Of a stretch of DNA of 64,000 nt, positions 4,403-64,000 are shown piece after piece. Below the pieces are notes generated by a model. The model saw only the letters and a list, made by a program, of their open reading frames with translations. It made no database searches and was not told the DNA's origin. The DNA comes from an uncultured Candidatus Saccharibacteria bacterium (GTDB lineage: Bacteria > Patescibacteriota > Minisyncoccia > UBA9983), in assembly GCA_964372755.1 (NCBI GenBank), contig CAYJQX010000001.1, positions 107,382 to 171,381 on the forward strand, given 5' to 3'. The number at the start of each line of letters is the position of its first letter. Positions within the stretch are counted from its first letter, which is position 1. A program made the translations under genes and the position numbers.

Positions 4403-4648
4403 GTGTTTATGTATTATGTTTATCTTTTGGAGTGTGCCGATAAAACATTTTATGTGGGCAGTACAAAGGATTTAAGCAAACGCATTATCGCCCACAACAC
4501 AAAAAAATCTGGAGCTCATTACACAAAAATTCGCCGGCCGGTGGTTCTCAAGTATAAAGAGAAGGTCTCCACTTACTCGGAAGCGCGAAAGCGTGAGGCG
4601 GAAATAAAATCTCTTTCTAGAGAAGAGAAAAGAAGATTGTTTAAGTGA
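4403..4648 (+). CDS. GIY-YIG nuclease domain protein
   Basis: YYVYLLEC...FYVGST...R..HN pattern typical of stand-alone GIY-YIG. Confidence 0.8.
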
Positions 4649-29456: not shown

Positions 29457-29475
29457 CATACATTGTCGGTTTCTG

Positions 29476-29948
29476 TATTGTGGTCTATAAGCCGAATTCT
29501 GTCCCCGATTTTAACGTCGGGGCGCGATCATTTATCTTGTTCCGCTTCTCGCGAAACGGAATCCTTGCGGCACATCCGCCGATGAGGCGGATACGGCCTT
29601 GCACCGGGTAGGGTTTACCACTCTTTTCTGTTGCCAAAAAAGAGACTGCGATAGCTTTTAGATTTCTCTCAAAAACATTCGCAAACTTTTCACCTTTCAT
29701 TTCGCGTAGCGAAATGACCCTGAGCGAGACCAACTTCAGGTTGGCACAGTCGAAGGGTATCTCTCGCTCGGGATAATTTCGCTACGCGAAATTAGTATTG
29801 TCTCTGTGACACTTTCCCTCCCTCAGAGATTGCCCTCCGAGGTGACAGGTGTTACCTGTTGCCCATATCTTTTATTGATTACTCAAAAAAGATGGTGTTC
29901 GGACTTTCCTCCCCTCGACAAAGCTCGGGGCGATCACGCGACCACATT
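29476..29948 (-). ncRNA. rnpB: RNase P RNA (bacterial type A-like); boundaries approximate
   Basis: minus-strand matches to universally conserved blocks: GGGAGGAAAGTCCGAACACC (P4 5' strand, CR-I), GGTAAACCCTACCCGGTGCAAGGCC (cf. E. coli GGUAAACUCCACCCGGAGCAAGGCC), ACAGAATTCGGCTTAT (P4 3' strand, cf. ACAGAACCCGGCUUAU); P3 hairpin CCCCGAGC...TCGAGGGG. Confidence 0.8.
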
Positions 29949-29979
29949 AAAGAAACCTAAGTCAATTCTACTACATTAT

Positions 29980-46864: not shown

Positions 46865-46925
46865 GCCATGGTAGCTCAGTGGTACCCGCCCGAACGACTG
46901 AAGTCGTTCAGTCGGGCGGGGAGCG
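46865..46925 (+). pseudogene. tRNA-Phe 5' fragment (positions 1-26) carrying a 36-nt GC-rich hairpin in the D-loop
   Basis: GCCATGGTAGCTCAGTGGTA identical to the 5' end of the intact tRNA-Phe at 47180, then CCCGCCCG-AACGACTGAAGTCGTTCAGT-CGGGCGGG, then GAGCG; no anticodon arm follows. Confidence 0.6.
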
Positions 46926-47179
46926 TGCCCTTACACTCTTGCATATATATACGGTGTACGTCTTGAGTGATAATATCGGCAAACTGTACAAGGGGATGGA
47001 CCCATGGGCCTTGCGCGGCGGCTCCGTGAACACCGCCACTGGGCGCACAAGAACAACGGCTCAGATGACAGGTTTGAGGGTCATTCACAAGGAGATTTCC
47101 TCCTCTGTTCGAGAGGCCTCGCGCAAGAGAAAAGTACCTTGAGACAGCAGCGGGGCTAAAAGTTTTTGGAAAAAATTTT

Positions 47180-47254
47180 GCCATGGTAGCTCAGTGGTAG
47201 AGCGCATCCCTGAAGAGGATGGCGTCGGGTGTTCGATTCACCCCCGTGGCACCA
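47180..47254 (+). tRNA. tRNA-Phe (anticodon GAA), CCA encoded
   Basis: manual fold: GCCATGG-TA-GCTC-AGTGGTA-GAGC-G-CATCC-CTGAAGA-GGATG-GCGTC-GGGTG-TTCGATT-CACCC-CCGTGGC-A-CCA. Confidence 0.9.
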
Positions 47255-47256
47255 AG

Positions 47257-47335
47257 CCTGAAGAGGATGGCGTCGGGTGTTCCCCGCCCGCATGACTCGC
47301 GTCAGCGTGTCGGGCGGGGATTCACCCCCGTGGCA
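47257..47335 (+). repeat. partial direct duplicate of tRNA-Phe (positions ~30-73) with a 38-nt GC-rich hairpin inserted in the T-loop
   Basis: CCTGAAGAGGATGGCGTCGGGTGTT-[CCCCGCCCG...CGGGCGGGG]-ATTCACCCCCGTGGCA immediately after the intact tRNA. Confidence 0.65.
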
Positions 47336-50717: not shown

Positions 50718-51950
50718 TTATTTACTCTCTAGTCTTAGGTTGCCAACAGCCCGCAAAGAATTCATATTTTTTACATGTTCATTTCTGAAGGCTCGAAAAT
50801 AGCCTGCCGAGCCGATCATGGCGCCATTGTCGGTGGTGTAGGACAGATGTGGAATGTGGAGCGTTGTGTGTGGCGAAGATTTTAAAACAGATTCCGCAAG
50901 AGAAGTTTGTAAAAGTTTATTATTTGCCACGCCTCCTGCCAAAATTAACGATTTTGCGTTATATTCTTTTACCGCCCGAATTGTTTTTGCGACCAAAGTT
51001 TCCACTATCGCGTTTTGAAACTCATGAGCCAATTCAGGTACAAGGTCGGAAATATTTTCACTCTCTCTAACTTTTCGAATATCGCGAATCAAATAAAGCA
51101 AAGCGGTTTTTAGCCCGGAAAAAGAAAAATCATAATCTTTGCTGTGGATCATTGGACGAGGCAGAGTTAAGTCCGAAGCACTAAATTCGAAATCCGAAAC
51201 AATTTCTGAATTTTTTAAATTTTTTCGAATTTCGCTTGCCTGTCGAAGCCTTGGCGAAGGTGGGCGTTTCGAATTTCGCGCTTTTTCAGCTTCCATGGAA
51301 ATAAGCGGTCCTCCGGGGTAGCCAAGCCCCAGCATTCGCGCCGCTTTGTCAAAAGCTTCGCCAGAGGCGTCGTCCCTTGTTTCTCCGATTATTTTGTAAT
51401 CCAACCATTTTTTAATCAACACAATTTCAGTGTGTCCACCGGAAACAAGTAAGGCGATAGCGGGGAATTGCACTTTGTTTTTTGTTGTTTGAGATTTGGT
51501 ACTTCCAGTGTTTTGCCCCAACAAAACACTGGCGATATGTCCTTCCATATGATTAACAGCCACAAGAGGCTTGTCCCATTTTTTTGCCAAATCTTTGGCG
51601 AATTCAATTCCTGTCCAAAGCGCTGGCTCCAACCCCGGCCCCACTGTTACTGCGATTATATCAATATTTAAATCACTAAATTCTAAATGATTGACGTCCG
51701 ACGTCAATCCATTAAGCCTTAGAGTTTTTTTTGCGGTTTTGAGAGCTTCGTCAAGGACGAGTGGGAGGTTTTTGAGATGTTCGCGTTTGGCGAGAGTTGG
51801 GAAGATCCCGCCATATTCAGCGTGAAGATCGGCTTGTGAAGAAACGATATTGGCAAGCACGCGAAAGTTCGGTGATTCAAAACCTCCTTCGGCATCTATT
51901 ATTGCGACAGATGTTTCGTCGCAAGATGTTTCGATGGCTAATATTCGCAT
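50718..51950 (-). CDS. tsaD: tRNA N6-adenosine threonylcarbamoyltransferase TsaD (Kae1/YgjD family) with internal insertions
   Basis: MRILAIETSCDETSVAIID N-terminus; the ORF extends to 51989; contains a ~45-aa low-complexity insertion encoded by a repeat-bearing segment. Confidence 0.85.
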   Translation of the reverse strand: MRILAIETSCDETSVAIIDAEGGFESPNFRVLANIVSSQADLHAEYGGIFPTLAKREHLKNLPLVLDEALKTAKKTLRLNGLTSDVNHLEFSDLNIDIIAVTVGPGLEPALWTGIEFAKDLAKKWDKPLVAVNHMEGHIASVLLGQNTGSTKSQTTKNKVQFPAIALLVSGGHTEIVLIKKWLDYKIIGETRDDASGEAFDKAARMLGLGYPGGPLISMEAEKARNSKRPPSPRLRQASEIRKNLKNSEIVSDFEFSASDLTLPRPMIHSKDYDFSFSGLKTALLYLIRDIRKVRESENISDLVPELAHEFQNAIVETLVAKTIRAVKEYNAKSLILAGGVANNKLLQTSLAESVLKSSPHTTLHIPHLSYTTDNGAMIGSAGYFRAFRNEHVKNMNSLRAVGNLRLESK

Positions 51951-52024
51951 ATTAATAATAAGGATTATTTTTATAAAAAATTGCCACACAACTCGGTTCT
52001 ACATAAGATTGTGTGGCAATTATA

Positions 52025-52465
52025 TCAATTATTCGCTACGTCATTTCTTAAACGGTATTTCCCTTCGTAATATGGGTGTAATCCACACACCCATTTTTTT
52101 AGGTCGGAAAATTTTTTTTCAGCCTCTTCCCCAAAAAATCCATCAGGCTTTAAAAGCAGTTCACCAAAAAAGTGACAAAATGCCTCTGCATAAAATTCCG
52201 GGCAATTTCTAAAAAATAATTTTATTTCCATAATCTCATTCAAAATTCTTCTTGAGTATTTAATTGCCAATTCCTCAGCTTCTGCGTTTCTGTTCACTCC
52301 AAGAAATTTCCATTTTTCAAGAACCAATTCCGTGAAAACTGCCAAAGAATGTGTCATTAATTCGGCACGCACCCCACTTGTTATTTCTATGAAAAATGGT
52401 TTTTCTATAGTCTTGGTGGTGTTGACGTCAATGATCATCGTAAACAGTTCATGTAGATGAGACAT
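52025..52465 (-). CDS. hypothetical protein
   Basis: 146-aa ORF. Confidence 0.35.
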   Translation of the reverse strand: MSHLHELFTMIIDVNTTKTIEKPFFIEITSGVRAELMTHSLAVFTELVLEKWKFLGVNRNAEAEELAIKYSRRILNEIMEIKLFFRNCPEFYAEAFCHFFGELLLKPDGFFGEEAEKKFSDLKKWVCGLHPYYEGKYRLRNDVANN

Positions 52466-52700
52466 TATCTACCCCTTCCCTTGGCTTTATTGTTGTCTTG
52501 TTTCTGTCTGGGTATCCTCATATAAATAAACATAAAGAAGTAAAAAAAGCAAATTTTTTTAGATCGCATATAAAAAGTTTTTTATTCCCAAATAAAATTT
52601 ACTTTTTACATTTTCGGCAAAATTTGATATATTTTAGCCGTTGTTTTATAAATGAAAGTGACTTATCATACGAAGCTTTGAGCGTGGAAATGATAAATGG

Positions 52701-52772
52701 GGCCCCATCGTCTAATGGTTAGGACAGCGGGTTTTCAATCCGTTAACCGGAGTTCGACTCTCCGTGGGGTCA
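52701..52772 (+). tRNA. tRNA-Glu (anticodon TTC)
   Basis: manual fold: acceptor GGCCCCA/TGGGGTC, anticodon arm GCGGG-TTTTCAA-TCCGT, T-arm CGGAG-TTCGACT-CTCCG. Confidence 0.75.
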
Positions 52773-53067
52773 AAAAGCGTTAAAAAAATATAAACTGCTT
52801 TATATTTTTAGCTTTTTGATAGCGGACCCCGCCACGGCGGGGGAGCTGGGGTCGCGGGTACTTACATTTTTTGCGAATTTTGTGAAGCAAAAAATTTAGT
52901 AACCCGTGACCAAAAGATTAAACCATAGTTGCGAGGGGCGGGCTGCGAAAATTTTGAGTGACGACGAAAAATTATTTGTAGCCAAGAAGCGTTAATGTTC
53001 GTCAAAATTTGCTAATTTTGACATGATTTTGCCCTATCTCTATTTTTTATGATATAATCTTTATATT

Positions 53068-53781
53068 ATGGAAGAAAAAAATAAATCATTGGCAGTGCCT
53101 ATAGCCATTATTGTAGCGGGGCTTTTGATAGCAGGAACAATTCTTTATACAAATATTAAGTCGGACAAAAAAGGGGTTGAGGTAGGTGATCAGGGAAAAT
53201 TTGCTCCCGTTGATATTAAAATTCGTCCCGTGGATGAAACGGATCATCTAATAGGCGATCCGAACGCTCTAGTCAAAGTGATTGAGTATTCGGATTTTGA
53301 ATGTCCTTTTTGCAAAGTTTTCCATGGCACTATGCAAGCTATCATGCAGAGCGAACTTGGACGAAGCGGGAAAGTGGCTTGGGTTTTTAGAAATTTCCCC
53401 ATTGTTCGCCTTCATTCCAAAGCGATGGAAGAGGCGGAAGCGGCGGAGTGCGCGGGGAAAATTGGAGGCAATCTTAAATTTTGGGAGTATGCCAATAAGA
53501 TTTTTGAGATAACTCCGTCAAATAATCAACTGGACTTGGCTGAACTGCCAAAGATCGCCGAACAAATAGGGTTGGACAAGACGCAATTTCAAGCCTGTAT
53601 GAATTCCGATGAGACATTGGAGAGAATTAAGAAAGATTTGGCGGATGCGGTGGAAGGAGGGGGCGCGGGCACTCCTTGGACGGTGGTTACCACGCAAAAC
53701 GGCAAAACTTATGTCATAAACGGAGCCGAACCATATCAAACCTCTTTAAAAATTATCCAGACGGCGGTAGATTCCCAATAG
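53068..53781 (+). CDS. DsbA-family thiol:disulfide oxidoreductase, membrane-anchored
   Basis: N-terminal TM; CPFC active site in a thioredoxin fold. Confidence 0.8.
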   Translation: MEEKNKSLAVPIAIIVAGLLIAGTILYTNIKSDKKGVEVGDQGKFAPVDIKIRPVDETDHLIGDPNALVKVIEYSDFECPFCKVFHGTMQAIMQSELGRSGKVAWVFRNFPIVRLHSKAMEEAEAAECAGKIGGNLKFWEYANKIFEITPSNNQLDLAELPKIAEQIGLDKTQFQACMNSDETLERIKKDLADAVEGGGAGTPWTVVTTQNGKTYVINGAEPYQTSLKIIQTAVDSQ

Positions 53782-53808
53782 TTATTATTTAATCTAAAAA
53801 ACAAAAAC

Positions 53809-54042
53809 ATGAAAAACGTAAAAATTTACTCGACTCCAACTTGTACTTTTTGCAGGGCGGCCAAAGATTTTTTTAAAGCTAATAATGTTGAGTATACAGA
53901 AATAGACGTAGCTCAAGATGAAGAGGCGAGAAAAAATATGTTTGAAATCTCGAAGCAAATGGGGGTGCCGGTGATAGACATCGAGGGGGAAATTATTGTG
54001 GGTTTTAACAAGCCGAAACTTGTTCAAATTCTAGGCCTTTAA
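53809..54042 (+). CDS. glutaredoxin-like protein (NrdH/Grx family)
   Basis: KIYSTPTCTFC CxxC, 77 aa. Confidence 0.8.
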   Translation: MKNVKIYSTPTCTFCRAAKDFFKANNVEYTEIDVAQDEEARKNMFEISKQMGVPVIDIEGEIIVGFNKPKLVQILGL

Positions 54043-54060
54043 TTTTTTTATTTTAATTCA

Positions 54061-55041
54061 ATGTACGATTTTATCATCATCGGCGGAGGACCAGCTGGTG
54101 CTGGCGCGGCCGTTTATGCGGCTAGGAAAAAACTGAAAACTTTGCTAATTACCGAGAGTTTCGGTGGCCAATCTATAGTTTCTGACAATATAGAAAACTG
54201 GATAGGCACGGTAAAAATCTCCGGATATGATTTGGCGCAAGCCTTTGAAAACCACGTGAGGGCTTATCCTCATGACGTGGAAATAAAAATGCCTGAAAAA
54301 GCAGTAGGCATAAAAGAGGCAGAGGGAGGTTTTGAGGTGGAAACAGAAACAGGGGGAAAATACATCGGCAAAATGCTAATGATTGCTTCCGGCGGAAGAA
54401 GACGCAGGCTCGGTGTTCCTGGAGAGGATAAATATGATGGCAAAGGTGTCGCATTTTGCGCCACTTGCGACGCGCCGCTTTTTAAGGGCAAAGAAGTCAT
54501 TGTGGTGGGTTCTGGAAATTCCGCCTTGGAATCGGTAGTCGATCTTTTTCCTTATGCCTCAAAAATCACTCTTCTTATGAGAGGAGAAGAAATGAAAGGA
54601 GATCCGGCTACTCAAGAACACATTACTGAACGAGGAGATATGGTGACAATTTTGAAAAACACGGAAGTGACAGAAGTTTTCGGAGAAGATTTTGTGACCG
54701 GAGTCAAAATTAAAAATAACAAGACGGGAGAAACTGGAGAGATAAAAGCAGGGGGTCTTTTTGTAGAAATCGGTTCTGTGCCGAATTCAGAAATTGTAAA
54801 AGATCTAGTGGAATTAAATAATTTCGGTGAAATCGTCATTGACCACAAGCTTGGCACAACGTCTAAGTCTGGTATTTTTGCCGCCGGAGATGTGACAGAT
54901 GAAGTTTATAAACAAAATAATATCTCAGTAGGAAACGCGGTGATAGCGACGCTCTCAGCATACAATTATTTCTTGAAGACAAGAAAACTCGACCCTAATA
55001 CACGAATTAACTCGAATGATACTAATAGTGTTAAGTCCTAA
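54061..55041 (+). CDS. trxB: thioredoxin-disulfide reductase
   Basis: FAD GGGPAG, redox CATCD, NADPH GSGNSA motifs. Confidence 0.9.
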   Translation: MYDFIIIGGGPAGAGAAVYAARKKLKTLLITESFGGQSIVSDNIENWIGTVKISGYDLAQAFENHVRAYPHDVEIKMPEKAVGIKEAEGGFEVETETGGKYIGKMLMIASGGRRRRLGVPGEDKYDGKGVAFCATCDAPLFKGKEVIVVGSGNSALESVVDLFPYASKITLLMRGEEMKGDPATQEHITERGDMVTILKNTEVTEVFGEDFVTGVKIKNNKTGETGEIKAGGLFVEIGSVPNSEIVKDLVELNNFGEIVIDHKLGTTSKSGIFAAGDVTDEVYKQNNISVGNAVIATLSAYNYFLKTRKLDPNTRINSNDTNSVKS

Positions 55042-55129
55042 CTTCTTTTATTAGCGACATTCGCGCGTATTATTTGCGTATTGGCGTCGGGTAAAAATCA
55101 CCAAATTAATAATTAATAAAATTTTTGTT

Positions 55130-55801
55130 ATGAAATACACCCTTCCAAGTTTGCCATACGCTTATAACGCCCTCGAGCCTTATATAGACGAGGCGACGAT
55201 GACCATTCATCACACGAAGCATCACCAAGCTTATATTGATAAATTAAATGGCGCGCTCACGAAGCATCCCGAAATTGCCGAAACGCCGATTGAAGAATTA
55301 CTCAAAAATTTAGGCAGTGTGCCGGAGGATATTCGTGGGCAAATAAAAAATCATGGCGGGGGATATTTGAATCACTCGTTGTTTTGGGAAATCTTGGCGC
55401 CAGAGGGTGACGCGCAAAAAATGCCGAGTGGGGAATTGGCGGAAGCGATAAACAAATCTTTCGGCAGCTTTGACGCGTTTAAAGAGCAATTTACAAATGC
55501 TTCGTTAAATCATTTTGGCAGTGGCTGGGCATGGCTTGCCCTGAGCGAAGTCGATTTATCCCGAGCGGAGTCGAGGGGAGGGTTGAAAGTCTATAGTCTC
55601 CCTAACCAAGACAGTCCGTTGAGCCTCGCCCCGCGAAGCCTTGGCGAAGTGGGGAAAAATGACAGGCCTCTTATAGGCTTGGACGTTTGGGAGCACGCTT
55701 ATTATTTGAAATATCAAAACAAACGCGCCGATTACATCACGGCGTTTTGGAGTGTCTTGGATTGGAAGAAGGTAGGAGAACTGTATGCCGTTAATAAATG
55801 A
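55130..55801 (+). CDS. sodA: Fe/Mn superoxide dismutase with internal insertions
   Basis: HHTKHHQAY, DVWEHAYYLKYQN; ~25 extra residues between WAWL and PLIGLDVWEH encoded by repeat-like DNA. Confidence 0.9.
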   Translation: MKYTLPSLPYAYNALEPYIDEATMTIHHTKHHQAYIDKLNGALTKHPEIAETPIEELLKNLGSVPEDIRGQIKNHGGGYLNHSLFWEILAPEGDAQKMPSGELAEAINKSFGSFDAFKEQFTNASLNHFGSGWAWLALSEVDLSRAESRGGLKVYSLPNQDSPLSLAPRSLGEVGKNDRPLIGLDVWEHAYYLKYQNKRADYITAFWSVLDWKKVGELYAVNK

Positions 55802-55952
55802 AAGCCCTTCGACTTTGCTCAGGGCAACTCTTCTCCTTGGCGACCAAGTCGAAGAGTTGAACAAAACTACAAAAAGGCGTTAGGATAGCTGTAACCTAGG
55901 TATTATTTGCTTGTGGGGCCCGCCCCGCGCTTTGCCATGCCGTAGCTATCCG

Positions 55953-57590
55953 TTAGCGAAGGCTGGAAGCCTTGGCGAAGTGGGGAAAGGTGGCCGAGAG
56001 GTTGAAGGCGCGGCTCTCGAAAAGCCGTATACCGGAAACGGTATCGAGGGTTCGAATCCCTCCCTTTCCGCCAGATTGGCAACTTTGAACCTTAGTCACG
56101 GCAAGGGTTTTTGAGCCCTTGCCACCGGCTTTTGGGGGTTCGAAATTGCTAGAGTTTAAGTCCATAAGAACATCAAAGACTGGCGTCCATATCGGCGTCA
56201 GTTTTTGATTTTGTACAGTAAAGCCTTCGAAGCATAGCTTCACCAATGTACGCTTTTGATTCATACCACTGGTCTGGAATACCTTATCTGCGTGATCCGT
56301 GAAGTCGAGTATCTCATTAAACTTTTGCACGAATTTGTCAGACTTACCCTCAAGGATCGATAGACGTTCCTGATACATCTCCTTCTCCTTTAAGAGCTCG
56401 TCCTGAATCTTTATAAACACATCTGCGTCTATGATGCGTTTTGAGCGATCCACGACAATATTGCGGATCTGTTGCTGGACTCTTACCAGCTCCTGCTTGA
56501 GAGTCTTTCGTTCCTTTTCCTCCTGATTTATTCGCTCTTTGGCGAAGTGCTGGAAATAAGCGTCCAAGACCTTCTTGAACCGATCCGGTAACTGCACCCT
56601 TGAGAGATGCATTGCGACCTGTTCCTCAACTGACTCCCAACGGATGTATTTGCGTTCGGTACACTTGCGATCGTTCCAATGGGTGCATGCGTAGTAGAGA
56701 TGACCTTTTTGCGTCTGTCCGCAGAGCGTAGAACCACAGACCGCACATCGCATGAATCCGGCCATTGGATACGAATGCTTGCGAGAACGATCGGCTGAGT
56801 GATTGTGTTGTTGGATGATTTCCTGAACGTCGTCAAAAAGCTTCTTGGTGATAAGTGTTGGAAAGCTTGCCTGACACGTTGCAGATCGAGTTTTGATGAG
56901 GCCGTAATAGATCGGATTCATCAGAATGTGCTCGATCGATGTTCGCTTCACCAAATTGCCGTATTTGCTCTTAAAGCCACGCTTAGCGAGTTCCTTTGCC
57001 AGCGAAAGATAGCTGTACTTACCGGTCGCATAGAGCTCAAAAGCCATTTTAACGAATGGTGCGCGCACGGGATCAACGATGAGAGACTTTGTCTTCTTAT
57101 CGTTTAAATAGCCGGTAGGTGCGTATCCGGGGAACCTGCCACGCTCTACGGCCTCTTTAAGACCCTTCCTGACCTCCCAGCTGATGTTCTGGGACGTCCA
57201 CTGGGCAATTGAGGACATAATGTTCTCGACAAGTTCTCCGGAGAAAGACTCGTCGAATTGCTCGACCACCGAGATCAACCGGACGTCGTGCTTTTTGAGC
57301 ATCATCTTTATTGCGGCGTAATCCGCAACGTTGCGACACATGCGGTCCAACTTGTGCATCAAAATGACATCAATCTTGCCGTCAGTTTTTGCCCGGTGAA
57401 GCATTTTCTGAAGCTGTGGACGTTCGACTGTTCGAGCCGATTCACCCTTTTCCTCGTAGACACCATCCGGTGCGAGAGTCCAGTTATGATCCATGCCGTA
57501 CTTTTGGCACGCTTTGACCTGCGCTGGGATACTCAGTTCTCGTTCGGCCTGACGAGAGGTAGAGACACGTCCGTAGATTAAATAATTCAT
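55953..57590 (-). CDS. large serine recombinase (resolvase N-domain + recombinase domain + zinc ribbon)
   Basis: YGRVSTSRQ catalytic Ser region, recombinase domain, CxxC...C...C zinc ribbon; the ORF has no stop until 55953, so the C-terminal ~40 codons are antisense to tRNA-Ser. Confidence 0.85.
   Translation of the reverse strand: MNYLIYGRVSTSRQAERELSIPAQVKACQKYGMDHNWTLAPDGVYEEKGESARTVERPQLQKMLHRAKTDGKIDVILMHKLDRMCRNVADYAAIKMMLKKHDVRLISVVEQFDESFSGELVENIMSSIAQWTSQNISWEVRKGLKEAVERGRFPGYAPTGYLNDKKTKSLIVDPVRAPFVKMAFELYATGKYSYLSLAKELAKRGFKSKYGNLVKRTSIEHILMNPIYYGLIKTRSATCQASFPTLITKKLFDDVQEIIQQHNHSADRSRKHSYPMAGFMRCAVCGSTLCGQTQKGHLYYACTHWNDRKCTERKYIRWESVEEQVAMHLSRVQLPDRFKKVLDAYFQHFAKERINQEEKERKTLKQELVRVQQQIRNIVVDRSKRIIDADVFIKIQDELLKEKEMYQERLSILEGKSDKFVQKFNEILDFTDHADKVFQTSGMNQKRTLVKLCFEGFTVQNQKLTPIWTPVFDVLMDLNSSNFEPPKAGGKGSKTLAVTKVQSCQSGGKGGIRTLDTVSGIRLFESRAFNLSATFPHFAKASSLR
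55984..56073 (+). tRNA. tRNA-Ser (anticodon CGA), type II, CCA encoded
   Basis: manual fold: GGAAAGG-TG-GCC-GAGAGGTTGAA-GGC-G-CGGCT-CTCGAAA-AGCCG-long arm-GAGGG-TTCGAAT-CCCTC-CCTTTCC-G-CCA. Confidence 0.85.
56100..56123. terminator. hairpin GGCAAGGG-TTTTTGAG-CCCTTGCC downstream of tRNA-Ser
   Basis: 8-bp GC-rich stem; weak T-run. Confidence 0.4.
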
Positions 57591-57641
57591 AAATTGTTTG
57601 TTAGATAGCTTGAGGGCTCTCCGTTTGGAGAGCCCTGGCGA

Positions 57642-58367
57642 TTAATATTTTTTTACGTGGTATACCAGCCGACCTATCATCTTGCTCTCCTTGAGAGGGT
57701 AGGTCTTTTTGAAGCCTTCTCTCTCTGGCCGGAGCTCGAGGTGATCACCTCGTTCGTGGTAATAACTCATCACCAGACCGTCCGGAGTCCTTATGATCGC
57801 TATGTCGCCGTTTTTTGGAGGAACGTCGGCATCGAGAATGATGAAGTCGTCGGTGACAATGCCGGCATCTGGAAGTGTGAGATCGGATACACGAAGTCCG
57901 AATACACGATGACCGGGTACAACATTATCCTTTGGAAGCAAAACAAAATCGCTCGTTCGGCTCAAATGCCCGTCGAGATCATCAATTGGGATCGCCACAA
58001 GCACCGGCAACTTGAAATGACCGCCGTCGGTCGAAAAACTCCTCTTCAGTTCTTCCAGCCCCTGCTCGAGCTTACTTGTGGCCTCCTGAACACGCTTCTC
58101 TCCGACCTCTTTAATATCAAATTTATAATTGCTGTCCTTGCTTACCTGATGAATCTTTCCCTCTGCCCAGTGCTTTCTGACTTCCTCCTCCTGAAGCTCA
58201 TATGCCTTAGCAAGGGTCGCCAGCTGTTTCTGGGAAGGGATGCGTGTGCCGTTTTCCAGCTGGCTGATATAGCTCGATGAAAAGCCAAGCCGTTCGGCAA
58301 GCTCTTTAATACTCCATTTTTTGAATTCTCTTTGCTGTCTTAGATATGAACCAAATGACATATTCAT
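57642..58367 (-). CDS. XRE-family HTH + S24 (LexA/cI-like) peptidase domain repressor
   Basis: N-terminal WSIKELAERLGFSSSYISQLENG HTH; C-terminal S24-like beta domain. Confidence 0.75.
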   Translation of the reverse strand: MNMSFGSYLRQQREFKKWSIKELAERLGFSSSYISQLENGTRIPSQKQLATLAKAYELQEEEVRKHWAEGKIHQVSKDSNYKFDIKEVGEKRVQEATSKLEQGLEELKRSFSTDGGHFKLPVLVAIPIDDLDGHLSRTSDFVLLPKDNVVPGHRVFGLRVSDLTLPDAGIVTDDFIILDADVPPKNGDIAIIRTPDGLVMSYYHERGDHLELRPEREGFKKTYPLKESKMIGRLVYHVKKY

Positions 58368-58517
58368 AGATTTTGCTTAATCGGTTAACTGCGACCTTGT
58401 TGCCTAAATGATAGCAAATTAGTAAAGATTAAGCAACTTTGCTTATCCACAAGCCAGAATATTGACCAGTTAAGCAATTTTGCTTAATATGACTATAGAG
58501 GTCTAAAAGTTAACGAT

Positions 58518-58724
58518 ATGAACAAATCACCAGTGAATATAAAACTCCGTGACCTTCGAATCAAGAAGGGGCTAACGCAATACCAGCTAGCCCGAATTCT
58601 TGGTTTTAAGCACAACACAGCGATCAGCCGGTACGAGACCGGCCGGAAGCGGCCGAATCTCGACACAGCCCAGCGGATCGCTTTGGCTCTCGGGGTCAGA
58701 GTAGAGGAAGTTTTCTTGCCTTAG
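58518..58724 (+). CDS. XRE-family HTH protein (Cro-like), divergent from the repressor
   Basis: LTQYQLARILGFKHNTAISRYETG HTH, 68 aa. Confidence 0.75.
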   Translation: MNKSPVNIKLRDLRIKKGLTQYQLARILGFKHNTAISRYETGRKRPNLDTAQRIALALGVRVEEVFLP

Positions 58725-58777
58725 GCAAGGTGGGGTCAATAAAAGTGTGAGGTCACTTCTATGAACCAAACCACCGC

Positions 58778-59056
58778 ATGTCCAAACCAGATAAAGATGA
58801 GGAAGCTCTTGTTGAGCTCACTCGCAACGCACTCGCCGACGTACTCGGACGAGAGCCGTCCCGACAAGAAGTTTGGAAAGTCCACGCTGGCTTTAAGCGT
58901 ATGGCGTTCATGCTTTTGGATCACATGAATCACATCAAAAAACATGAGAACGAAAATCCTGATCAAGAGACTTATCCGGAGGATATGGACACGGATGACT
59001 CGGAAGCCGCCGACAAGGAAGGAACTTCTTTGGAGACGGGAGAGCCTCTTACGTAA
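58778..59056 (+). CDS. hypothetical acidic protein
   Basis: 92-aa ORF in the island. Confidence 0.35.
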   Translation: MSKPDKDEEALVELTRNALADVLGREPSRQEVWKVHAGFKRMAFMLLDHMNHIKKHENENPDQETYPEDMDTDDSEAADKEGTSLETGEPLT

Positions 59057-59180
59057 CTTCAACATCCGGGAACTTGAAAATCCAATTACACGAAGAGATT
59101 TCTGCCGAGCGATGGATAACATCGATCGAGCTCTTCCCAAGGCCAGAGAGTGGTAAAGACCGAGCCTTACTCTCCCCTCA

Positions 59181-59786
59181 ATGACGCCAGACGTGATGGG
59201 AGGAATAAGGCCCGGTCTTGGTCGACTCCGCGCCTTAGTTTTTTCATGTATGCCGGATAAACAAATCGCAATCAGAGATCTTCGCAAAGGAGACTGGTAC
59301 TGGATCAGCAAAGTTCTCCTCGACGAGTACGGAAGCACGATCAAACCGATTGGCATCGCCGTTTATAACTGCCTGGCGGAGCATGCTAACCAGGAGGGTT
59401 TTTGCTTTCCTTCGCACAAACACATCGCCGACAAAATCGGCGCGAGTATTTCGAGTGTGCAAAGAGGCATACGGCAACTGATAAAGCTCGGCATCATCCG
59501 GAAAAGCCGGCGACGCTATCACAATGTGTACTACCTGTTGAAACTAGACCGGTCATACAGACCGAACTCAAACAAGACCGGTCAGTCAGACTTGCACATC
59601 GGTCAGAGAGACCGGTCAGATCAGTCAGTGGGAACTACTAACAAGAATAAAGAAAAAGAATTAATTAATAAGAATTCCGAACGTGATCAAAAAACTGGGG
59701 ATAACTTGCACGAATTGAAATCTGCGCTCGTTGAAAAGATGTCTATGAGTAGCTCAAAGAGGAGGACGGCGATGGATGACAGCTGA
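59181..59786 (+). CDS. HTH-domain protein, putative replication initiator / phage regulatory protein
   Basis: HIADKIGASISSVQRGIRQLIKLGII winged-helix-like; iteron-like repeats inside the 3' coding region. Confidence 0.45.
   Translation: MTPDVMGGIRPGLGRLRALVFSCMPDKQIAIRDLRKGDWYWISKVLLDEYGSTIKPIGIAVYNCLAEHANQEGFCFPSHKHIADKIGASISSVQRGIRQLIKLGIIRKSRRRYHNVYYLLKLDRSYRPNSNKTGQSDLHIGQRDRSDQSVGTTNKNKEKELINKNSERDQKTGDNLHELKSALVEKMSMSSSKRRTAMDDS
59546..59618. repeat. three direct copies of AGACCGGTCA (palindromic core GACCGGTC) at 59546, 59575 and 59609: iteron-like
   Basis: read directly; ~29-34 nt spacing. Confidence 0.45.
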
Positions 59787-59909
59787 TCATCGTTGGCCGT
59801 CCGGGAAATGGTCGAACCCCGGTCTGAAATATTATTAACTAATCCATGATCGAGGATTTCTGAAAGCCAATATCAGCAATACCAGCCCAAGAAACCTCCA
59901 ACGCTACCT

Positions 59910-60194
59910 ATGGATCAAGATCAATTAAATATAGGCAATTGCCCTCATTGCACTAAGATCATCTTCAAGAACGGAGCATTCAACTCGAACGCTTCGTTTA
60001 CGATGCGTTGCCCGAGCTGTCAGAAACTCCTTGAAATAGAGATAAGGACAAAGATTGAGATCATCATAAAACCAGCTGAAAGATATCTATCAGAGAAAAA
60101 ACCAAAGTTTGGGAAATTGCCTGTGCTATTTCTGATTCCCACACCTTCTTGCTCTTATGCAATTTGTATCTGTGTAATCAATTGTCTTTGCTGA
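59910..60194 (+). CDS. zinc-ribbon hypothetical protein
   Basis: CPHC...CPSC pairs. Confidence 0.35.
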   Translation: MDQDQLNIGNCPHCTKIIFKNGAFNSNASFTMRCPSCQKLLEIEIRTKIEIIIKPAERYLSEKKPKFGKLPVLFLIPTPSCSYAICICVINCLC

Positions 60195-60267
60195 AGTTCC
60201 ATACTCGTTATACAAAAAGGAGCTACATTAGCCCCTTTTTGCCCTTTGTTTGCCCCTGTGGCGAGCT

Positions 60268-61875
60268 TTATTCGACCTTGAAGCCAAACATCATGCTGGC
60301 CTCCAAATGCTCCGCAATGTGACAGTGTGCCATCCACTCGCCGGGATTGGTCATTTCGACGAGAATCTCAACATTGTCGCCATTTTGAATAAGCGTAGTA
60401 TCTTTCCAGACGAGGTTATCATTCGGTTTGCCATTCGTACTCAACACCAAGAATCGCTGACCGTGGAAGTGGATCGGGTGTTGCATTGGATGCATGGAAT
60501 TCGGGTCGTTGGTGATTTTGATTTTCACCTTGTCACCAACTTTAAATTTCCAGTCGATGTCCATATTTTTATTACCGGTGTCTTCGTCTTCTATAACCCA
60601 CTTCATCATCTCCGGATTGGACATTGCATTCATCATGGTATTACTGTCTTCCCACTCAATCGGATTGTCGCTTGCCATCATCGATCCATTCGACATGCTC
60701 TGGCCGTTGCCCATCATGTGCATGTTGTGACCGCCGGTCTCTTCCTGTTGCATCATGCCCTGCATATCCATACCCATATCAATGGACAACTTCAGACGCT
60801 TGTCTACCGGTTTATTGAACGACGACCTGAAGGCATCAATCTCAGATTGTATGTCTTTGTTTGAGCGCAATACTGCAAACTCTTTCTCAAAAGAAATGGC
60901 GATTTTTTCACTCGCAATGGTAATTGTTCCGAGCGTATAGGTACGTTCAGGAGTTTTGTGCTCAAGTTTATACGACCCAGCGTTAGCAAACAACACTTCA
61001 ACAATGACTCGTTCGGAGGGACTCAAGATAACGCCATCGCTCCATGTTTCGCGTTCGTATTTGCCGCCGTCAGCACCCACAAGCTTCATCTTTGCGCCAG
61101 GAATAGAGAGATTGAATGTTCTGGTATTGGCGGAGTTCGTGATATAGAAACGAATCACTTCTCCGGCATTTGCTTGAAGTGTGTAATCCGTCTCACCGTT
61201 TACGAGCATGGTATTACCAAACCTGCCCATGAGAGTATGGTCAGCAGATGCTTTGCTGAATACTGCGATCTTGCCATTTTCCATGAGGATATCGTCTACA
61301 AAGAGAGCGACTTCGCGGTTGACCGGAGACCAGTAGTTCGGATCATTGGGAACGACAAGGTAATTGCCGTAGAGACCAAGCTCCTGTGCATAGTCTTCTC
61401 GAATGTGTGGATGATACCAATACATGCCCTCGTCGGGGAACTTGACCTTGTAGGTGAAAGATTCGCCCGGCCTAACCTCCTTCTGTGTCACATCTGGTAC
61501 GCCATCGAATTTATTCTCCAGCCGTACACCGTGCGAGTGAATCGTGGTATCGACATCAGTGTTATTAGTGAAATTCAAAGTAACTTCTGCACCTTGCTCA
61601 ACCTTGATCATGGGTCCCGGTATCATGCCGTTATATGCGAGCATTTTAACCACGCTGTTACCGATCGTTTTCTTTACGATAGACGCCGTGAGGTTGTATG
61701 TATCACCGTTCTTAAGCTCGACTATCTCGCTCTGCTTGGCTTCCACAAGGCCGGTGATATCGGTAGAAAAACTACCAGCCAATACTGTATTACCTGTGTC
61801 TGTCTGTCGTAGTAAAGCGATTCCGCCGACCACGATCACGACTGCAATGATTCCAATGATTAGTTTATTTTTCAT
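60268..61875 (-). CDS. multicopper oxidase (CueO/CopA-type) with signal peptide and Met-rich insert
   Basis: HxH copper sites (WYHPH, HPIHFHG), HCHIAEHLEASMM type-1 Cu site, Met-rich MGMDMQGMMQQ...MHMMGNG segment. Confidence 0.85.
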   Translation of the reverse strand: MKNKLIIGIIAVVIVVGGIALLRQTDTGNTVLAGSFSTDITGLVEAKQSEIVELKNGDTYNLTASIVKKTIGNSVVKMLAYNGMIPGPMIKVEQGAEVTLNFTNNTDVDTTIHSHGVRLENKFDGVPDVTQKEVRPGESFTYKVKFPDEGMYWYHPHIREDYAQELGLYGNYLVVPNDPNYWSPVNREVALFVDDILMENGKIAVFSKASADHTLMGRFGNTMLVNGETDYTLQANAGEVIRFYITNSANTRTFNLSIPGAKMKLVGADGGKYERETWSDGVILSPSERVIVEVLFANAGSYKLEHKTPERTYTLGTITIASEKIAISFEKEFAVLRSNKDIQSEIDAFRSSFNKPVDKRLKLSIDMGMDMQGMMQQEETGGHNMHMMGNGQSMSNGSMMASDNPIEWEDSNTMMNAMSNPEMMKWVIEDEDTGNKNMDIDWKFKVGDKVKIKITNDPNSMHPMQHPIHFHGQRFLVLSTNGKPNDNLVWKDTTLIQNGDNVEILVEMTNPGEWMAHCHIAEHLEASMMFGFKVE

Positions 61876-61894
61876 ATATTTATTGGTCGGTTAA

Positions 61895-64000
61895 TTATAA
61901 TTCACGCCTTCGTAGAAGGACGGCGTTAATTGCAACAATAACCGTGCTTGCCGACATAAACACGGCGGCTACTGCCGGATCAAGAATGATTCCCTTGAAT
62001 GCAAGTGCGCCGGCCGCAAGAGGCAGTGCTACCACGTTATAGCCGGTTGCCCAAAACAGGTTCTGGATCATCTTTGTATAGGTCATCTGCGACAATCGCA
62101 CAATCTTCACGATATCCCGAGGATCGTTCCGAACAAGAATGATACCGGCCGATTCAATGGCGACATTTGTACCTGCACCTATTGCAATGCCGAGATCGGC
62201 CTGTGTCAGAGCCGGAGCATCATTGATACCATCGCCGACCATAGCAACTTTGAGACCTCGCTCTTGAAGCGCTTTTACCTTTTCTGATTTCTCCGACGGG
62301 AGTACCCTAGCGAAATACTCATCTATGCCAAGCTCGGAGGCAACCCACTTGGCAACATCTTCGGAGTCGCCGGTGATCATTGCTGTTTTCACACCCCTTT
62401 CTTTGAGCGACTTAATGGCTTCTCGTGACTCTTCGCGGATGATGTCGGCAAGAGCAATGGCACCGAGGAGCTTTTTATCCTTTACCGTAAAGACAACGGT
62501 CTGTCCTTTTTTTCCAGCATCCTGAACCTGATTGGAGATTTCATTGGGGACGGTAAGTCCAAGACCCTCAAGAAGTGCCGGTCCACCAACCATAATCTCC
62601 TGCTCGCCGATCATTGCTTTCACGCCTTTACCTTTGATCGCTTCAAATTTCTTAGGATCTTTGAGTGACAATTTTTGTTCTTTTGCTTTTGCGACAACAG
62701 CACGAGCGATCGGATGTTCCGACAGGGTATCAAGTGAAGCGGCTAATTCTACAACCTCGTCTTTAGTATGTCCGCTAGTGTTCCAAACTTCCACTACTCC
62801 GAATTCTCCCTTGGTTAGTGTTCCTGTTTTATCAAATAACACTGTGTCAATAGTTCGAGCGGCTTCAAGAGCAAGACGCTGTTTTACCAAAAAGCCGTTC
62901 TGTGCCGCTTTGGTTGTAGAGATTGATGCAACAAGCGGCACTGCCAGACCAAGTGCGTGCGGACAGGCAATGACAAGTACGGCTACAAGCCGAGCCACCG
63001 CAAAACCGACGTCAGCTCCGACCATAAGCCATGCAATGAGCGTAATTATGCCTCCACCGACTGCGACTATTGTGAGATAAAGGGCGGCTCGGTCGGAAAG
63101 AATCTGCAAACGCGACTTGGAAGCTTGAGCTTCGGCGACTAAACGCATAACACCAGCAAGAAAGGTTTTCTCGCCGATTTGTGCAACCTTAATTTTCAGT
63201 GCACCATCACCATTTATAGTGCCAGCGATAACTGCGTCACCCTGCTTCTTGGAAACTGGTTTCGACTCTCCAGTAACCATCGACTCGTTTACATCGGAAT
63301 CTCCGTCAATGATCGAGCCGTCTGCAGGAATCTTCGTTCCGGGTTTTACGAGCACAACATCGTTCTCTCGAAGCTCGGAAAGCGAAATAGTTGTTGTTAC
63401 ACTATTACGGATTACTTCTGCAGTATCAGGAAGGAGCTTTGAAAGCTCCTTAAGCGCACCTTGTGCTCCGGAAACTGCACGCATCTCGAGCCAGTGCCCA
63501 AGAAGCATAATGGTGATAAGCGTTGTAAGCTCCCAAAAAAGAGCTTCAGCACCTGCAAAAACCGCATACACACTCCAGAGGTAAGCGGCAGAAATAGCGA
63601 TAGCGATCAGGGTCATCATGCCCGGCAGTCGTCCTTTGATTTCACGCCATGCACCAGCAAGGAATACCCAGCCACCATAGAAAAAGACGATCGATCCTAA
63701 GATCAAAGGGAGATAGTCCGAACCGGGAAAAGTAGGCGGTGACCACTTGAAAATAGTCTCTACGACCTTAGCGTAGAGCACAACTGGAATAGTTAAAATG
63801 AGGCTTATCCAAAACTTTCTAAAAAACATCTTGGTCGAATGACCTGCGTGTTTATCATGATCCTCGTGTCCGACTGATCCCTTTTTCTTTGTAGGCACCA
63901 GCCGCATACCGCATTCAGGGCACATACCAGGATTGTCCTGCATCACCTCTGGATGCATAGGGCAGGTGTACAGATCTTTTGTGTGTTCGTGATGAGTCAT
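61895..64000 (-). CDS. copper-transporting P1B-type ATPase, CPH-motif (CopB/P1B-3-like); start coincides with the window edge
   Basis: TM6 CPH (ACPHALGLAVP), DKTGTLT, GDGINDAPAL, HP dipeptide; His-rich N-terminus with CPMHPE...CPECG metal-binding zinc ribbon. Confidence 0.85.
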   Translation of the reverse strand: MTHHEHTKDLYTCPMHPEVMQDNPGMCPECGMRLVPTKKKGSVGHEDHDKHAGHSTKMFFRKFWISLILTIPVVLYAKVVETIFKWSPPTFPGSDYLPLILGSIVFFYGGWVFLAGAWREIKGRLPGMMTLIAIAISAAYLWSVYAVFAGAEALFWELTTLITIMLLGHWLEMRAVSGAQGALKELSKLLPDTAEVIRNSVTTTISLSELRENDVVLVKPGTKIPADGSIIDGDSDVNESMVTGESKPVSKKQGDAVIAGTINGDGALKIKVAQIGEKTFLAGVMRLVAEAQASKSRLQILSDRAALYLTIVAVGGGIITLIAWLMVGADVGFAVARLVAVLVIACPHALGLAVPLVASISTTKAAQNGFLVKQRLALEAARTIDTVLFDKTGTLTKGEFGVVEVWNTSGHTKDEVVELAASLDTLSEHPIARAVVAKAKEQKLSLKDPKKFEAIKGKGVKAMIGEQEIMVGGPALLEGLGLTVPNEISNQVQDAGKKGQTVVFTVKDKKLLGAIALADIIREESREAIKSLKERGVKTAMITGDSEDVAKWVASELGIDEYFARVLPSEKSEKVKALQERGLKVAMVGDGINDAPALTQADLGIAIGAGTNVAIESAGIILVRNDPRDIVKIVRLSQMTYTKMIQNLFWATGYNVVALPLAAGALAFKGIILDPAVAAVFMSASTVIVAINAVLLRRREL

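Follow-up and report, generated by a model that had tools for sequence, protein, structure and literature searches.

The subject of this report is a short DNA repeat in a 64,000-nt stretch of the genome of an uncultured Candidatus Saccharibacteria bacterium (contig CAYJQX010000001.1, GenBank assembly GCA_964372755.1; hereafter the window). Three copies of one motif lie in the window, in the tsaD gene, in the sodA gene and against the 5' end of tRNA-Ser(CGA). They are probably accounted for (probability of about 0.65) by a tagged single-stranded DNA (ssDNA) hairpin repeat of the Ssn/REP kind (REP, repetitive extragenic palindrome) that is associated with genes for small GIY-YIG nucleases. The dispersed 30-nt repeat is called family 1 here. 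The copies in tsaD and sodA are clean insertions of 30 nt (10 codons) in loops. The best-supported view is that the kind of element (Ssn/REP hairpins) is already known, and that what is new is the motif family, which is spread unusually widely and persists strongly inside genes. The copies, their parts and their hosts are as follows.

51245-51259, 55635-55649 and 55966-55980, + strand for all three: exact 15-mer GAAGCCTTGGCGAAG, located by pattern search
51235..51264, + strand (antisense to tsaD): 30-nt hairpin unit CTTGCCTGTCGAAGCCTTGGCGAAGGTGGG, absent from the relative's contig L001; it encodes PPSPRLRQA within RPPSPRLRQAS
50718..51947, − strand: tsaD, host of the first copy (Pfam TsaD, E = 1.5e-74)
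55625..55654, + strand (sense in sodA): 30-nt hairpin unit CTCGCCCCGCGAAGCCTTGGCGAAGTGGGG, encoding LAPRSLGEVG
55130..55801, + strand: sodA (Fe/Mn superoxide dismutase), host of the second copy (Pfam Sod_Fe_N and Sod_Fe_C)
55919..55985, + strand: composite copy 5' of tRNA-Ser(CGA), with a second hairpin nested inside
55919-55928, + strand: outer 5' arm of the composite copy, CCCGCCCCGC
55929-55965, + strand: nested 37-nt GTAG-type hairpin of the composite copy
55966-55985, + strand: outer core and 3' arm of the composite copy, GAAGCCTTGGCGAAGTGGGG, the last GG being the tRNA start
55984..56073, + strand: tRNA-Ser(CGA), abutted by the third copy (ARAGORN; Rfam tRNA)

A preliminary description of the window had reported three motif copies in the same orientation, and the exact 15-mer is indeed present three times on the + strand. 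When up to two mismatches were allowed, GAAGCCTTGGCGAAG was found at just three sites in the window, versus 0.19 expected from shuffled sequences. The ends ascribed to the motif had to be corrected: the tsaD copy ends in GGTGGGC and not in GGGG, and the start is not uniform, as the tRNA copy begins with G and not with C. In the tsaD unit, the 5' arm is degenerate and contains three G.T pairs. Between the copies in sodA and at the tRNA flank, 23 bases are identical (GAAGCCTTGGCGAAGTGGGGAAA), and the shared upstream sequence that had been noticed in both was found again (CGCCCCGCG). The motif does abut tRNA-Ser(CGA), whose first two G are the last two G of the motif, but the copy at this place is composite and not simple.

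For the element-free comparison, syntenic contigs of relatives (L001–L003, about 75% identical) were compared with the window codon by codon. At the tsaD site, one His codon in L001 stands against 33 bases in the window, a net difference of +30 nt. In the protein, RPPSPRLRQAS is found where the closest relative (69–74% identical) has a single His, in agreement with the claim that an extra stretch is absent from canonical TsaD. At the sodA site, L002 and L003 read TTA TCA|AAA AAT and the window has 30 extra bases. The resulting peptide LAPRSLGEVG, located between SPLS and KNDRPL, is present in the SodA of this genome alone and is missing from all 14 aligned homologues, two of which are 74–78% identical. 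An insertion had been announced between WAWL and PLIGLDVWEH of SodA; it is real, but it consists of two separate insertions and the motif is only in the second (55625-55654). The tsaD copy is thus absent from L001 and the sodA copy from L002 and L003, and the element lengthens both coding regions with the frame unbroken, as had been suggested. AlphaFold models of the two proteins were confident overall (predicted local distance difference test score, pLDDT, of 88 and 85 for the two models). The pLDDT falls below 50 at residues 170–172 of SodA, exactly at the insertion, and at residues 229–254 of TsaD, the segment holding the insertion. In these models, the ten extra residues are predicted to sit in a surface loop of each protein. 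Both loops are variable in other homologues, as would be expected if the three matches were a chance resemblance within ordinary lineage-specific loops. This explanation is refuted, with a probability close to nil, by the absence of the DNA from the syntenic relatives, by the three sites observed versus 0.19 expected and by the number of genomes that hold the repeat (see below).

At the tRNA-Ser site of L003, an un-nested 33-nt variant (CTTGCCCCGCGAAGCTCTTTGAGCGAAGTGGGG) occupies the corresponding position, with the core and the basal stem kept. In the same contig (1180-1345), a 17-nt duplicate of the 5' end of tRNA-Ser lies beside the hairpin and is followed by an AT-rich insert of about 100 nt and then by the full tRNA. 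A similar duplication (27 nt, start of a GIY-YIG gene) surrounds a hairpin-bearing insert of about 100 nt in the locus L089.

Aligned copies of family 1 gave a 30–31-nt unit, (G)CYTG-CCCNNC-GAAGCCTTGGCGAAG-NNGGG. Its parts are a 5' tag (G)CYTG, a G/C stem of 6–7 bp, a symmetric 3×3 internal loop (GAA×GAA) and, at the apex, a stem of 3 bp that closes on TT. No 3' partner exists for the CYTG tag. Conservation is confined to 31 nt, with none outside. The preliminary description had proposed to look for hairpin structure; the motif is the core of a hairpin, and both stems covary. Stem pair 9–28 is complementary in 87% of the copies and pair 10–27 in 82% (CG, AT or GT). Covariation of the apical pair 6–9 was counted in variants outside the positions fixed by the search pattern: CG was replaced by TA in six cases and by AT in three, versus four single-sided changes. 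Folded as DNA, the consensus has an energy of −8.1 kcal/mol (z = −2.1). The G[A/T]AG variants of family 1, in which this sequence is internal to the hairpin, include GTAG. For the GAA/GAA loop, a K-turn and an archaeal bulge-helix-bulge were considered on the basis of the sequence and rejected, pairs 9–28 and 10–27 being Watson–Crick and the loops being opposite, not staggered.

Going by general knowledge of hairpin loops, a covarying pair that closes a two-base loop would fit ssDNA better than RNA. It is distinctly improbable that the hairpin acts as RNA, for example by signalling processing or stability or by binding a protein, and is not selfish DNA but an element under selection where it stands. 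G.U-compatible stem pairs are frequent, the + strand RNA of the tsaD copy folds at −20.4 kcal/mol (z = −2.1), and the core and basal stem are kept at the tRNA-Ser site in L003. In addition, two DNA ligase genes (L005 and L072) with the insertion at the same site have elements identical at 31 of 32 positions and flanks that are 64–75% identical. Against a function as RNA stand the apical covariation, the presence of copies in both orientations and in all frames (see below) and the lack of any Rfam match; part of the excess of G.T pairs is an artefact, since the search pattern had K K at these positions and so excluded C. Rfam covariance models gave no match at the three sites up to E = 10, and at gathering score only tRNAs and RNase P were detected in the window. 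Among the papers searched with the DNA string and the encoded peptides, nothing relevant was found. All six frames of the tsaD unit are free of stop codons, and the same is true of the commonest 30-nt unit. Absence of stops (85% of units versus 28% of shuffles) was rejected as evidence of selection: because 20 of the 30 nt were fixed by the search, it is a property of the unit and not a test.

The tsaD unit lies between two direct repeats.

51223..51235, + strand: left copy of the 13-nt direct repeat TTTCGAATTTCGC
51267..51279, + strand: right copy of the 13-nt direct repeat TTTCGAATTTCGC

A perfect 12-nt repeat had been described here; the repeat is real, with a length of 13 nt. It had been read as a target-site duplication (TSD) made by a MITE (a miniature transposable element with inverted repeats), an explanation that is now very unlikely. 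Without the unit, tsaD of the window reads (CGCGAAATTCGAAA)x2, and the element-free L001 reads (GCACGAAATCCAAA)x2 at the same place, a perfect 14-nt tandem. Since the pair is already present in element-free DNA, it is not a TSD from this insertion, and for tsaD this origin is refuted. The two copies are spaced by 44 nt (14 + 30), a length that is not divisible by three and would put the gene out of frame. No repeat flanks the sodA copy, and no duplication of fixed length was found across 116 copies. An exact 7-nt repeat does abut the unit in L023, L038, L088 and L102. Flanking repeats of variable length (7–13 nt) were found in 11–16% of copies versus 3.5% of control positions, about 85% of all copies having none, and where present they are part of longer period-7 arrays. 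Such period-7 tandem repeats flank 6 of 106 copies versus 0.3% of controls. The units in heptad arrays are always in phase, at a repeat-unit boundary. The tsaD gene offers one such site: its 14-nt tandem is made of NNTTTCG heptads, and the 14-nt units are identical within each genome and differ between the window and L001. Examples of heptads are GAGTTTT, GAGATTT, GGGCTTG and NNTTTCG (window 51170-51290; L004, L023, L030, L038, L088, L102). MITEs resemble this hairpin in being short non-autonomous repeats able to extend open reading frames, those of Coxiella included. They have terminal inverted repeats, fixed TSDs and a size of 50–500 bp, none of which holds here: the unit is 30 nt long, has 6-bp arms and makes no TSD. 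Terminal inverted repeats of a parent insertion sequence (IS) are also lacking, the sole inverted repeat being the 6–7-bp stem of the hairpin itself.

The distribution of family 1 was determined by scanning one genome per species for the exact 20-mer GAAGCCTTGGCGAAGKKGGG, and at least 120 loci were recovered. The 20-mer is present in at least 120 species-level genomes of about ten phyla, versus about four expected (an estimate). The matches listed include Patescibacteria of many classes, three cultured isolates, Verrucomicrobiota, Planctomycetota, Bacteroidota, Pseudomonadota, Acidobacteriota, Myxococcota, Nitrospirota, Actinomycetota and Dependentiae. Additional copies were about one per 20 kb in the match loci versus about one per 300 kb in metagenome loci chosen for another reason. 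Intragenic copies, at least 60 codons deep in open frames, make up 49 of 127 (about 40%); they occur in all frames, 32 antisense versus 17 sense. Hosts confirmed by Pfam in low-GC genomes are ATP-dependent DNA ligase (two sites), a MiaB-like enzyme, UvrD, an IleRS-like synthetase, transketolase, glutamate dehydrogenase and a UvrA with six tandem 30-nt units. The ligases of L005 and L072 have exactly ten more amino acids than that of L082, which has its own copy at another site (net +7 aa). The glutamate dehydrogenase of L069 (3627-5228) also has a separate in-frame tandem repeat, GFTLKEVHPE x3.

Eight copies are nested, the tRNA-flank copy of the window included. In all of them the second unit lies exactly between the 5' stem arm and GAAG; it measures 30 nt in six and 33 and 37 nt in the other two. 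Six units form a head-to-head intergenic cluster in Geomonas paludis (L021), similar to a bacterial interspersed mosaic element (BIME). The other copies are mostly single, tandem-direct (L073, L025, L036) or nested. The fixed junction of nesting, together with the preference for heptad arrays and for loops within larger palindromes, suggests that insertion takes place in DNA that is unpaired and prone to form structures. Association of the family 1 hairpin with tRNAs was rejected as incidental, 2 of about 125 copies being within 100 nt of a tRNA versus about one expected. Transport by a phage or plasmid was likewise rejected (four viral matches, no convincing plasmid match). All three window copies are on the strand of positive GC skew; over 110 loci the element strand is of negative skew in 67 versus 43 (p = 0.03), a result confounded with the 2:1 antisense bias of the copies towards their host genes.

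A second hairpin family (family 2) is present near and inside sodA.

55534..55582, + strand: family 2 hairpin in the other variable SodA loop (SEVDLSRAESRG), reading GCTTG-CCCT-GAGCGAAGTCGA-(24-nt nested unit)-AGGG
55804..55825, − strand: family 2 hairpin just past the stop codon of sodA, GCCCTGAGCAAAGTCGAAGGGC, which L002 and L003 also have in conserved form

At least 120 metagenome loci hold its consensus CCCTGAGCGAAGTCGAAGGG, whose 5' tag is GCCTG, so that a GCYTG tag is common to families 1 and 2. In L002, which is element-free at the 55534-55582 site, the sequence reads GCCCTGAACGCCGTTGAAGGA and is identical to the family 2 consensus at 16 of 21 positions. This last likeness would fit copies that are not autonomously mobile and arise by local templated repair or gene conversion seeded by microhomology, for instance the sodA copy from the tRNA-flank copy. 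The two copies share 23+9 identical bases and are 331 nt apart, and the variable flanking repeats agree with such an origin. It is nonetheless quite unlikely: it leaves unexplained both the recurrence of one 20-mer across many phyla (at least 120 genomes) and the nesting at one fixed junction, and the sodA target of the relatives (TTATCA|AAAAAT) is without similarity to the element.

Partners of the hairpin were searched for among genes bracketed by inverted hairpins and then by the GIY-YIG signature. In L010 (Aquisalinus), a family 1 hairpin lies 11 nt before the start codon of a GIY-YIG gene. In L087, the GIY-YIG gene is 9 nt from a family 1 variant and 110 nt from a further copy, and in L089 it is 56 nt from a family 1 hairpin. 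In L240 and L136, it has family 2 hairpins on both sides. Clustering of the genes neighbouring the hairpin loci revealed no recurrent neighbour other than this GIY-YIG cluster. The nucleases match Pfam PF01541 only, and their nearest Protein Data Bank entries are UPF0213 and SLX1. A profile (A3) built from them gave at least 7,340 homologues, many of the named matches being from metagenome-assembled genomes of the Patescibacteria group. Loci were then chosen with no regard to the hairpin. The fetched protein nearest to that of L010 (P0329, 74% identical) is encoded on two contigs (L263 and L264), where CTTGTCCTCC-GAAGCCTTGGCGAAG-GAGGA lies between a tRNA and the start codon of the gene. The exact 15-nt core upstream of the P0329 gene is not expected by chance. 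A candidate trans-acting partner was also found in the window.

4409..4648, + strand: small single-domain GIY-YIG gene (79 aa)

The product is 42% identical to the hairpin-flanked L240 protein and aligns to profile A3 with an hhalign probability of 97.8%. Among solved structures, the UPF0213 proteins 1ywl and 1zg2 come closest to it. A different arrangement was seen in the loci L250–L262 (gene at 1501 in each), where eight KSGSG-type GIY-YIG genes lie 150–250 nt downstream of a tRNA 3' end. Palindromes of the form CCACGTAAAA..CGCTCGCAG..TTTTACGTGG and a copied tRNA end (GTGGCACCGCCA) precede each of them, which suggests tRNA-targeting mini-elements.

The closest known system is that of the Ssn nucleases. 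SsnA, a GIY-YIG protein of 94 aa (cd10448), binds the hairpin repeat NTS (about 30 nt, tag CGTC) only as ssDNA, and its cut falls a few bases upstream of this repeat (Chenal et al. 2025, Nat Commun, PMC11893778). The orientation of NTS is set by conserved upstream bases, the Ssn gene is typically flanked by its own repeats, and many enzyme/motif pairs exist (PMC11893778). Family 1 resembles this NTS-SRM system in its hairpin of about 30 nt with a conserved orienting 5' sequence and hundreds of copies, in the tiny (80–100 aa) single-domain GIY-YIG gene flanked by the repeat, at times on both sides as in an IS, and in a wide spread across phyla with motif/enzyme pairs specific to subfamilies. 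Of the features that define an SRM, family 1 has the hairpin of 20–50 nt with a conserved orienting 5' flank, and a small single-domain GIY-YIG gene with the repeat in its flanks occurs in both families (L010, L087 and L089 for family 1; L136 and L240 for family 2). Family 1 differs from NTS in its tag (GCYTG versus CGTC), in its GAA×GAA internal loop and in its hosts, which are heavily Patescibacteria and the PVC (Planctomycetes, Verrucomicrobia, Chlamydiae) group and not symbiotic Proteobacteria. The candidate nucleases beside family 1 differ from Ssn in having UPF0213 proteins as nearest solved relatives.

REPs are the second system to which the repeat can be compared. Tagged REPs were described inside genes, notably repair genes, and some of them were equated with the Rickettsia palindromic elements (RPEs) (Di Nocera et al. 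2013, PMC3733652). Like family 1, these intragenic REPs (GTAG or CGTC tags) are tagged dispersed stem-loops of 20–40 nt with G.T pairs in their stems; some lie wholly inside open reading frames, often of uvrA, uvrD, ligase and tRNA-related genes, and add 7–30 residues (PMC3733652). Tag and sequence are different, and the peptides that PMC3733652 lists for O. terrae, G. uraniireducens and R. baltica differ from those of family 1, the GTAG-21 peptide SRIRQEFGG of R. baltica being loosely similar. REPs are mostly genus-level families, whereas the core of family 1 is identical across phyla. The unit is, as in REPs, an imperfect palindrome of 20–40 nt. It lacks the terminal GTAG or CGTC tag (its tag is GCYTG), inverted doublets (REPINs) do not predominate, L021 having the only head-to-head cluster, and the copies are not predominantly extragenic (49 of 127 deep in open frames). 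It is unlikely that the repeat is a REP-type element mobilised on its ssDNA hairpin by a Y1 (HUH) transposase, either the REP-associated tyrosine transposase (RAYT) or the TnpA of IS200/IS605, with the GIY-YIG genes as bystanders. The imperfect palindrome, its orienting 5' tag, the lack of a TSD, the BIME-like cluster in Geomonas, the documented intragenic REPs (PMC3733652) and the GTAG among the G[A/T]AG variants all agree with a Y1 element. The tag, the predominance of single or tandem-direct copies over inverted doublets and the GIY-YIG cluster as sole recurrent neighbour found do not. Moreover, no RAYT or other Y1 gene was detected by neighbour clustering or by a crude motif scan of the window and of 1.7 Mb of loci (8-kb pieces per genome).

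The insertions in tsaD and sodA can also be set beside the RPEs, as both are in-frame gene insertions tolerated in loops. RPEs are selfish palindromic DNA found in frame in protein-coding genes and in RNA genes and tolerated in surface loops. They measure about 100–150 bp, are restricted to Rickettsia and have an unrelated sequence, whereas family 1 is 30 nt long and occurs in Patescibacteria and many other phyla.

Several observations weigh against a GIY-YIG-associated ssDNA hairpin. The SRM pattern HGTCWY..YYVSBRH..WNVSBRG..RNCYNB had no match in the family 1 and family 2 consensus sequences, in the three window copies or in the whole window; as a control, NTS gave one match. Only 2% of NTS copies are intragenic versus about 40% of those of family 1, that is, ten to twenty times fewer. 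The eight KSGSG-type GIY-YIG loci among L250–L262, chosen with no regard to the hairpin, had different palindromes and no family 1 hairpin; the pairing, if real, is therefore subfamily-specific. No hairpin lies beside the GIY-YIG gene of the window (4409..4648), and no nuclease gene of the family 1 type is present within the 64 kb. GIY-YIG genes and hairpins could simply pile up together in junk regions next to tRNAs. Both genic copies of the window (tsaD and sodA) are degenerate, with a folding energy of about −4 kcal/mol (nearest-neighbour DNA), no better than shuffles. Much of the family statistics comes from copies ascertained by the exact 20-mer. Finally, no presence/absence polymorphism, which would point to recent mobility, was found between near-identical genomes.

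With these points taken into account, the GIY-YIG-associated ssDNA hairpin is still the favoured explanation. Family 1 would multiply within some genomes and land in intergenic DNA and in genes. A stop-free 30-nt copy that falls in a tolerant surface loop would add ten residues and survive, as in tsaD and sodA, because the commonest unit is 30 nt long and stop-free in any frame. The tRNA-Ser copy would be an older intergenic copy in which a second unit has nested. On the DNA side, the hairpin may be what a small single-domain GIY-YIG nuclease of tRNA-adjacent mini-elements acts with, as NTS/SRM is for Ssn; we infer this pairing by analogy, from the gene neighbourhood, and the copying mechanism put forward is likewise presumptive. 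More tentatively, and with doubt outweighing confidence, families 1 and 2 could be the founders of a superfamily of GCYTG-tagged ssDNA hairpins spread through all bacteria, each family with its own GIY-YIG nuclease of 80–100 aa encoded in tRNA-adjacent mini-elements. Unlike the NTS of Neisseria, these hairpins would be actively mobile modules that nest in one another at a single fixed junction, and a stop-free form of 30 nt (10 codons) would have evolved in them and would colonise coding sequences.

If the pairing holds, the Ssn/hairpin systems would be extended to a different motif class, to another branch of small GIY-YIG nucleases and to the Candidate Phyla Radiation. Such hairpins could persist inside essential genes as ten-codon modules, and they could be the source of many odd GC-rich low-complexity peptides of metagenomes (SLGEGG, PKPWRR, LRQGFGGQA, SPRLR, FAKAS). 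Should the superfamily exist, it would be a general generator of loop insertions in TsaD, SodA, UvrA, DNA ligase and RNase P RNA, in Patescibacteria and beyond, and a reservoir of new pairs of site-specific ssDNA nucleases and targets. In practice, the repeat flags annotation noise and provides markers for strain typing. The proteins are candidates for new sequence-specific ssDNA nucleases with a defined 30-nt target.

Other GC-rich hairpins are present in the window. The RNase P RNA gene (29472-29949, − strand; Rfam 139.6 bits) measures 478 nt versus 367 nt for the model. Its helix P12 has an extra palindromic hairpin of about 95 nt (especially 29699-29792), which holds CCCGAGCGAGA...TCTCGCTCAGGG and CCCTTCGAC; these resemble family 2. 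The tRNA-Phe gene (47180-47254) is located between two GC-rich hairpins of 44 nt (46879-46922 and 47277-47320; 73% alike), and more GC-rich sequence lies nearby at 46992-47046 (region 46879-47334). Another GC-rich hairpin is found past tRNA-Glu (52816-52863). Directly past tRNA-Ser, the GC content rises from 0.40 to 0.47 (window 55953-64000). A large serine recombinase open reading frame (55953-57590, − strand) runs open antisense through the tRNA and the hairpin and ends in ...PHFAKASSLR. The segment 55953-64000 looks like an island integrated at tRNA-Ser, with the C-terminus of the recombinase set by the junction.

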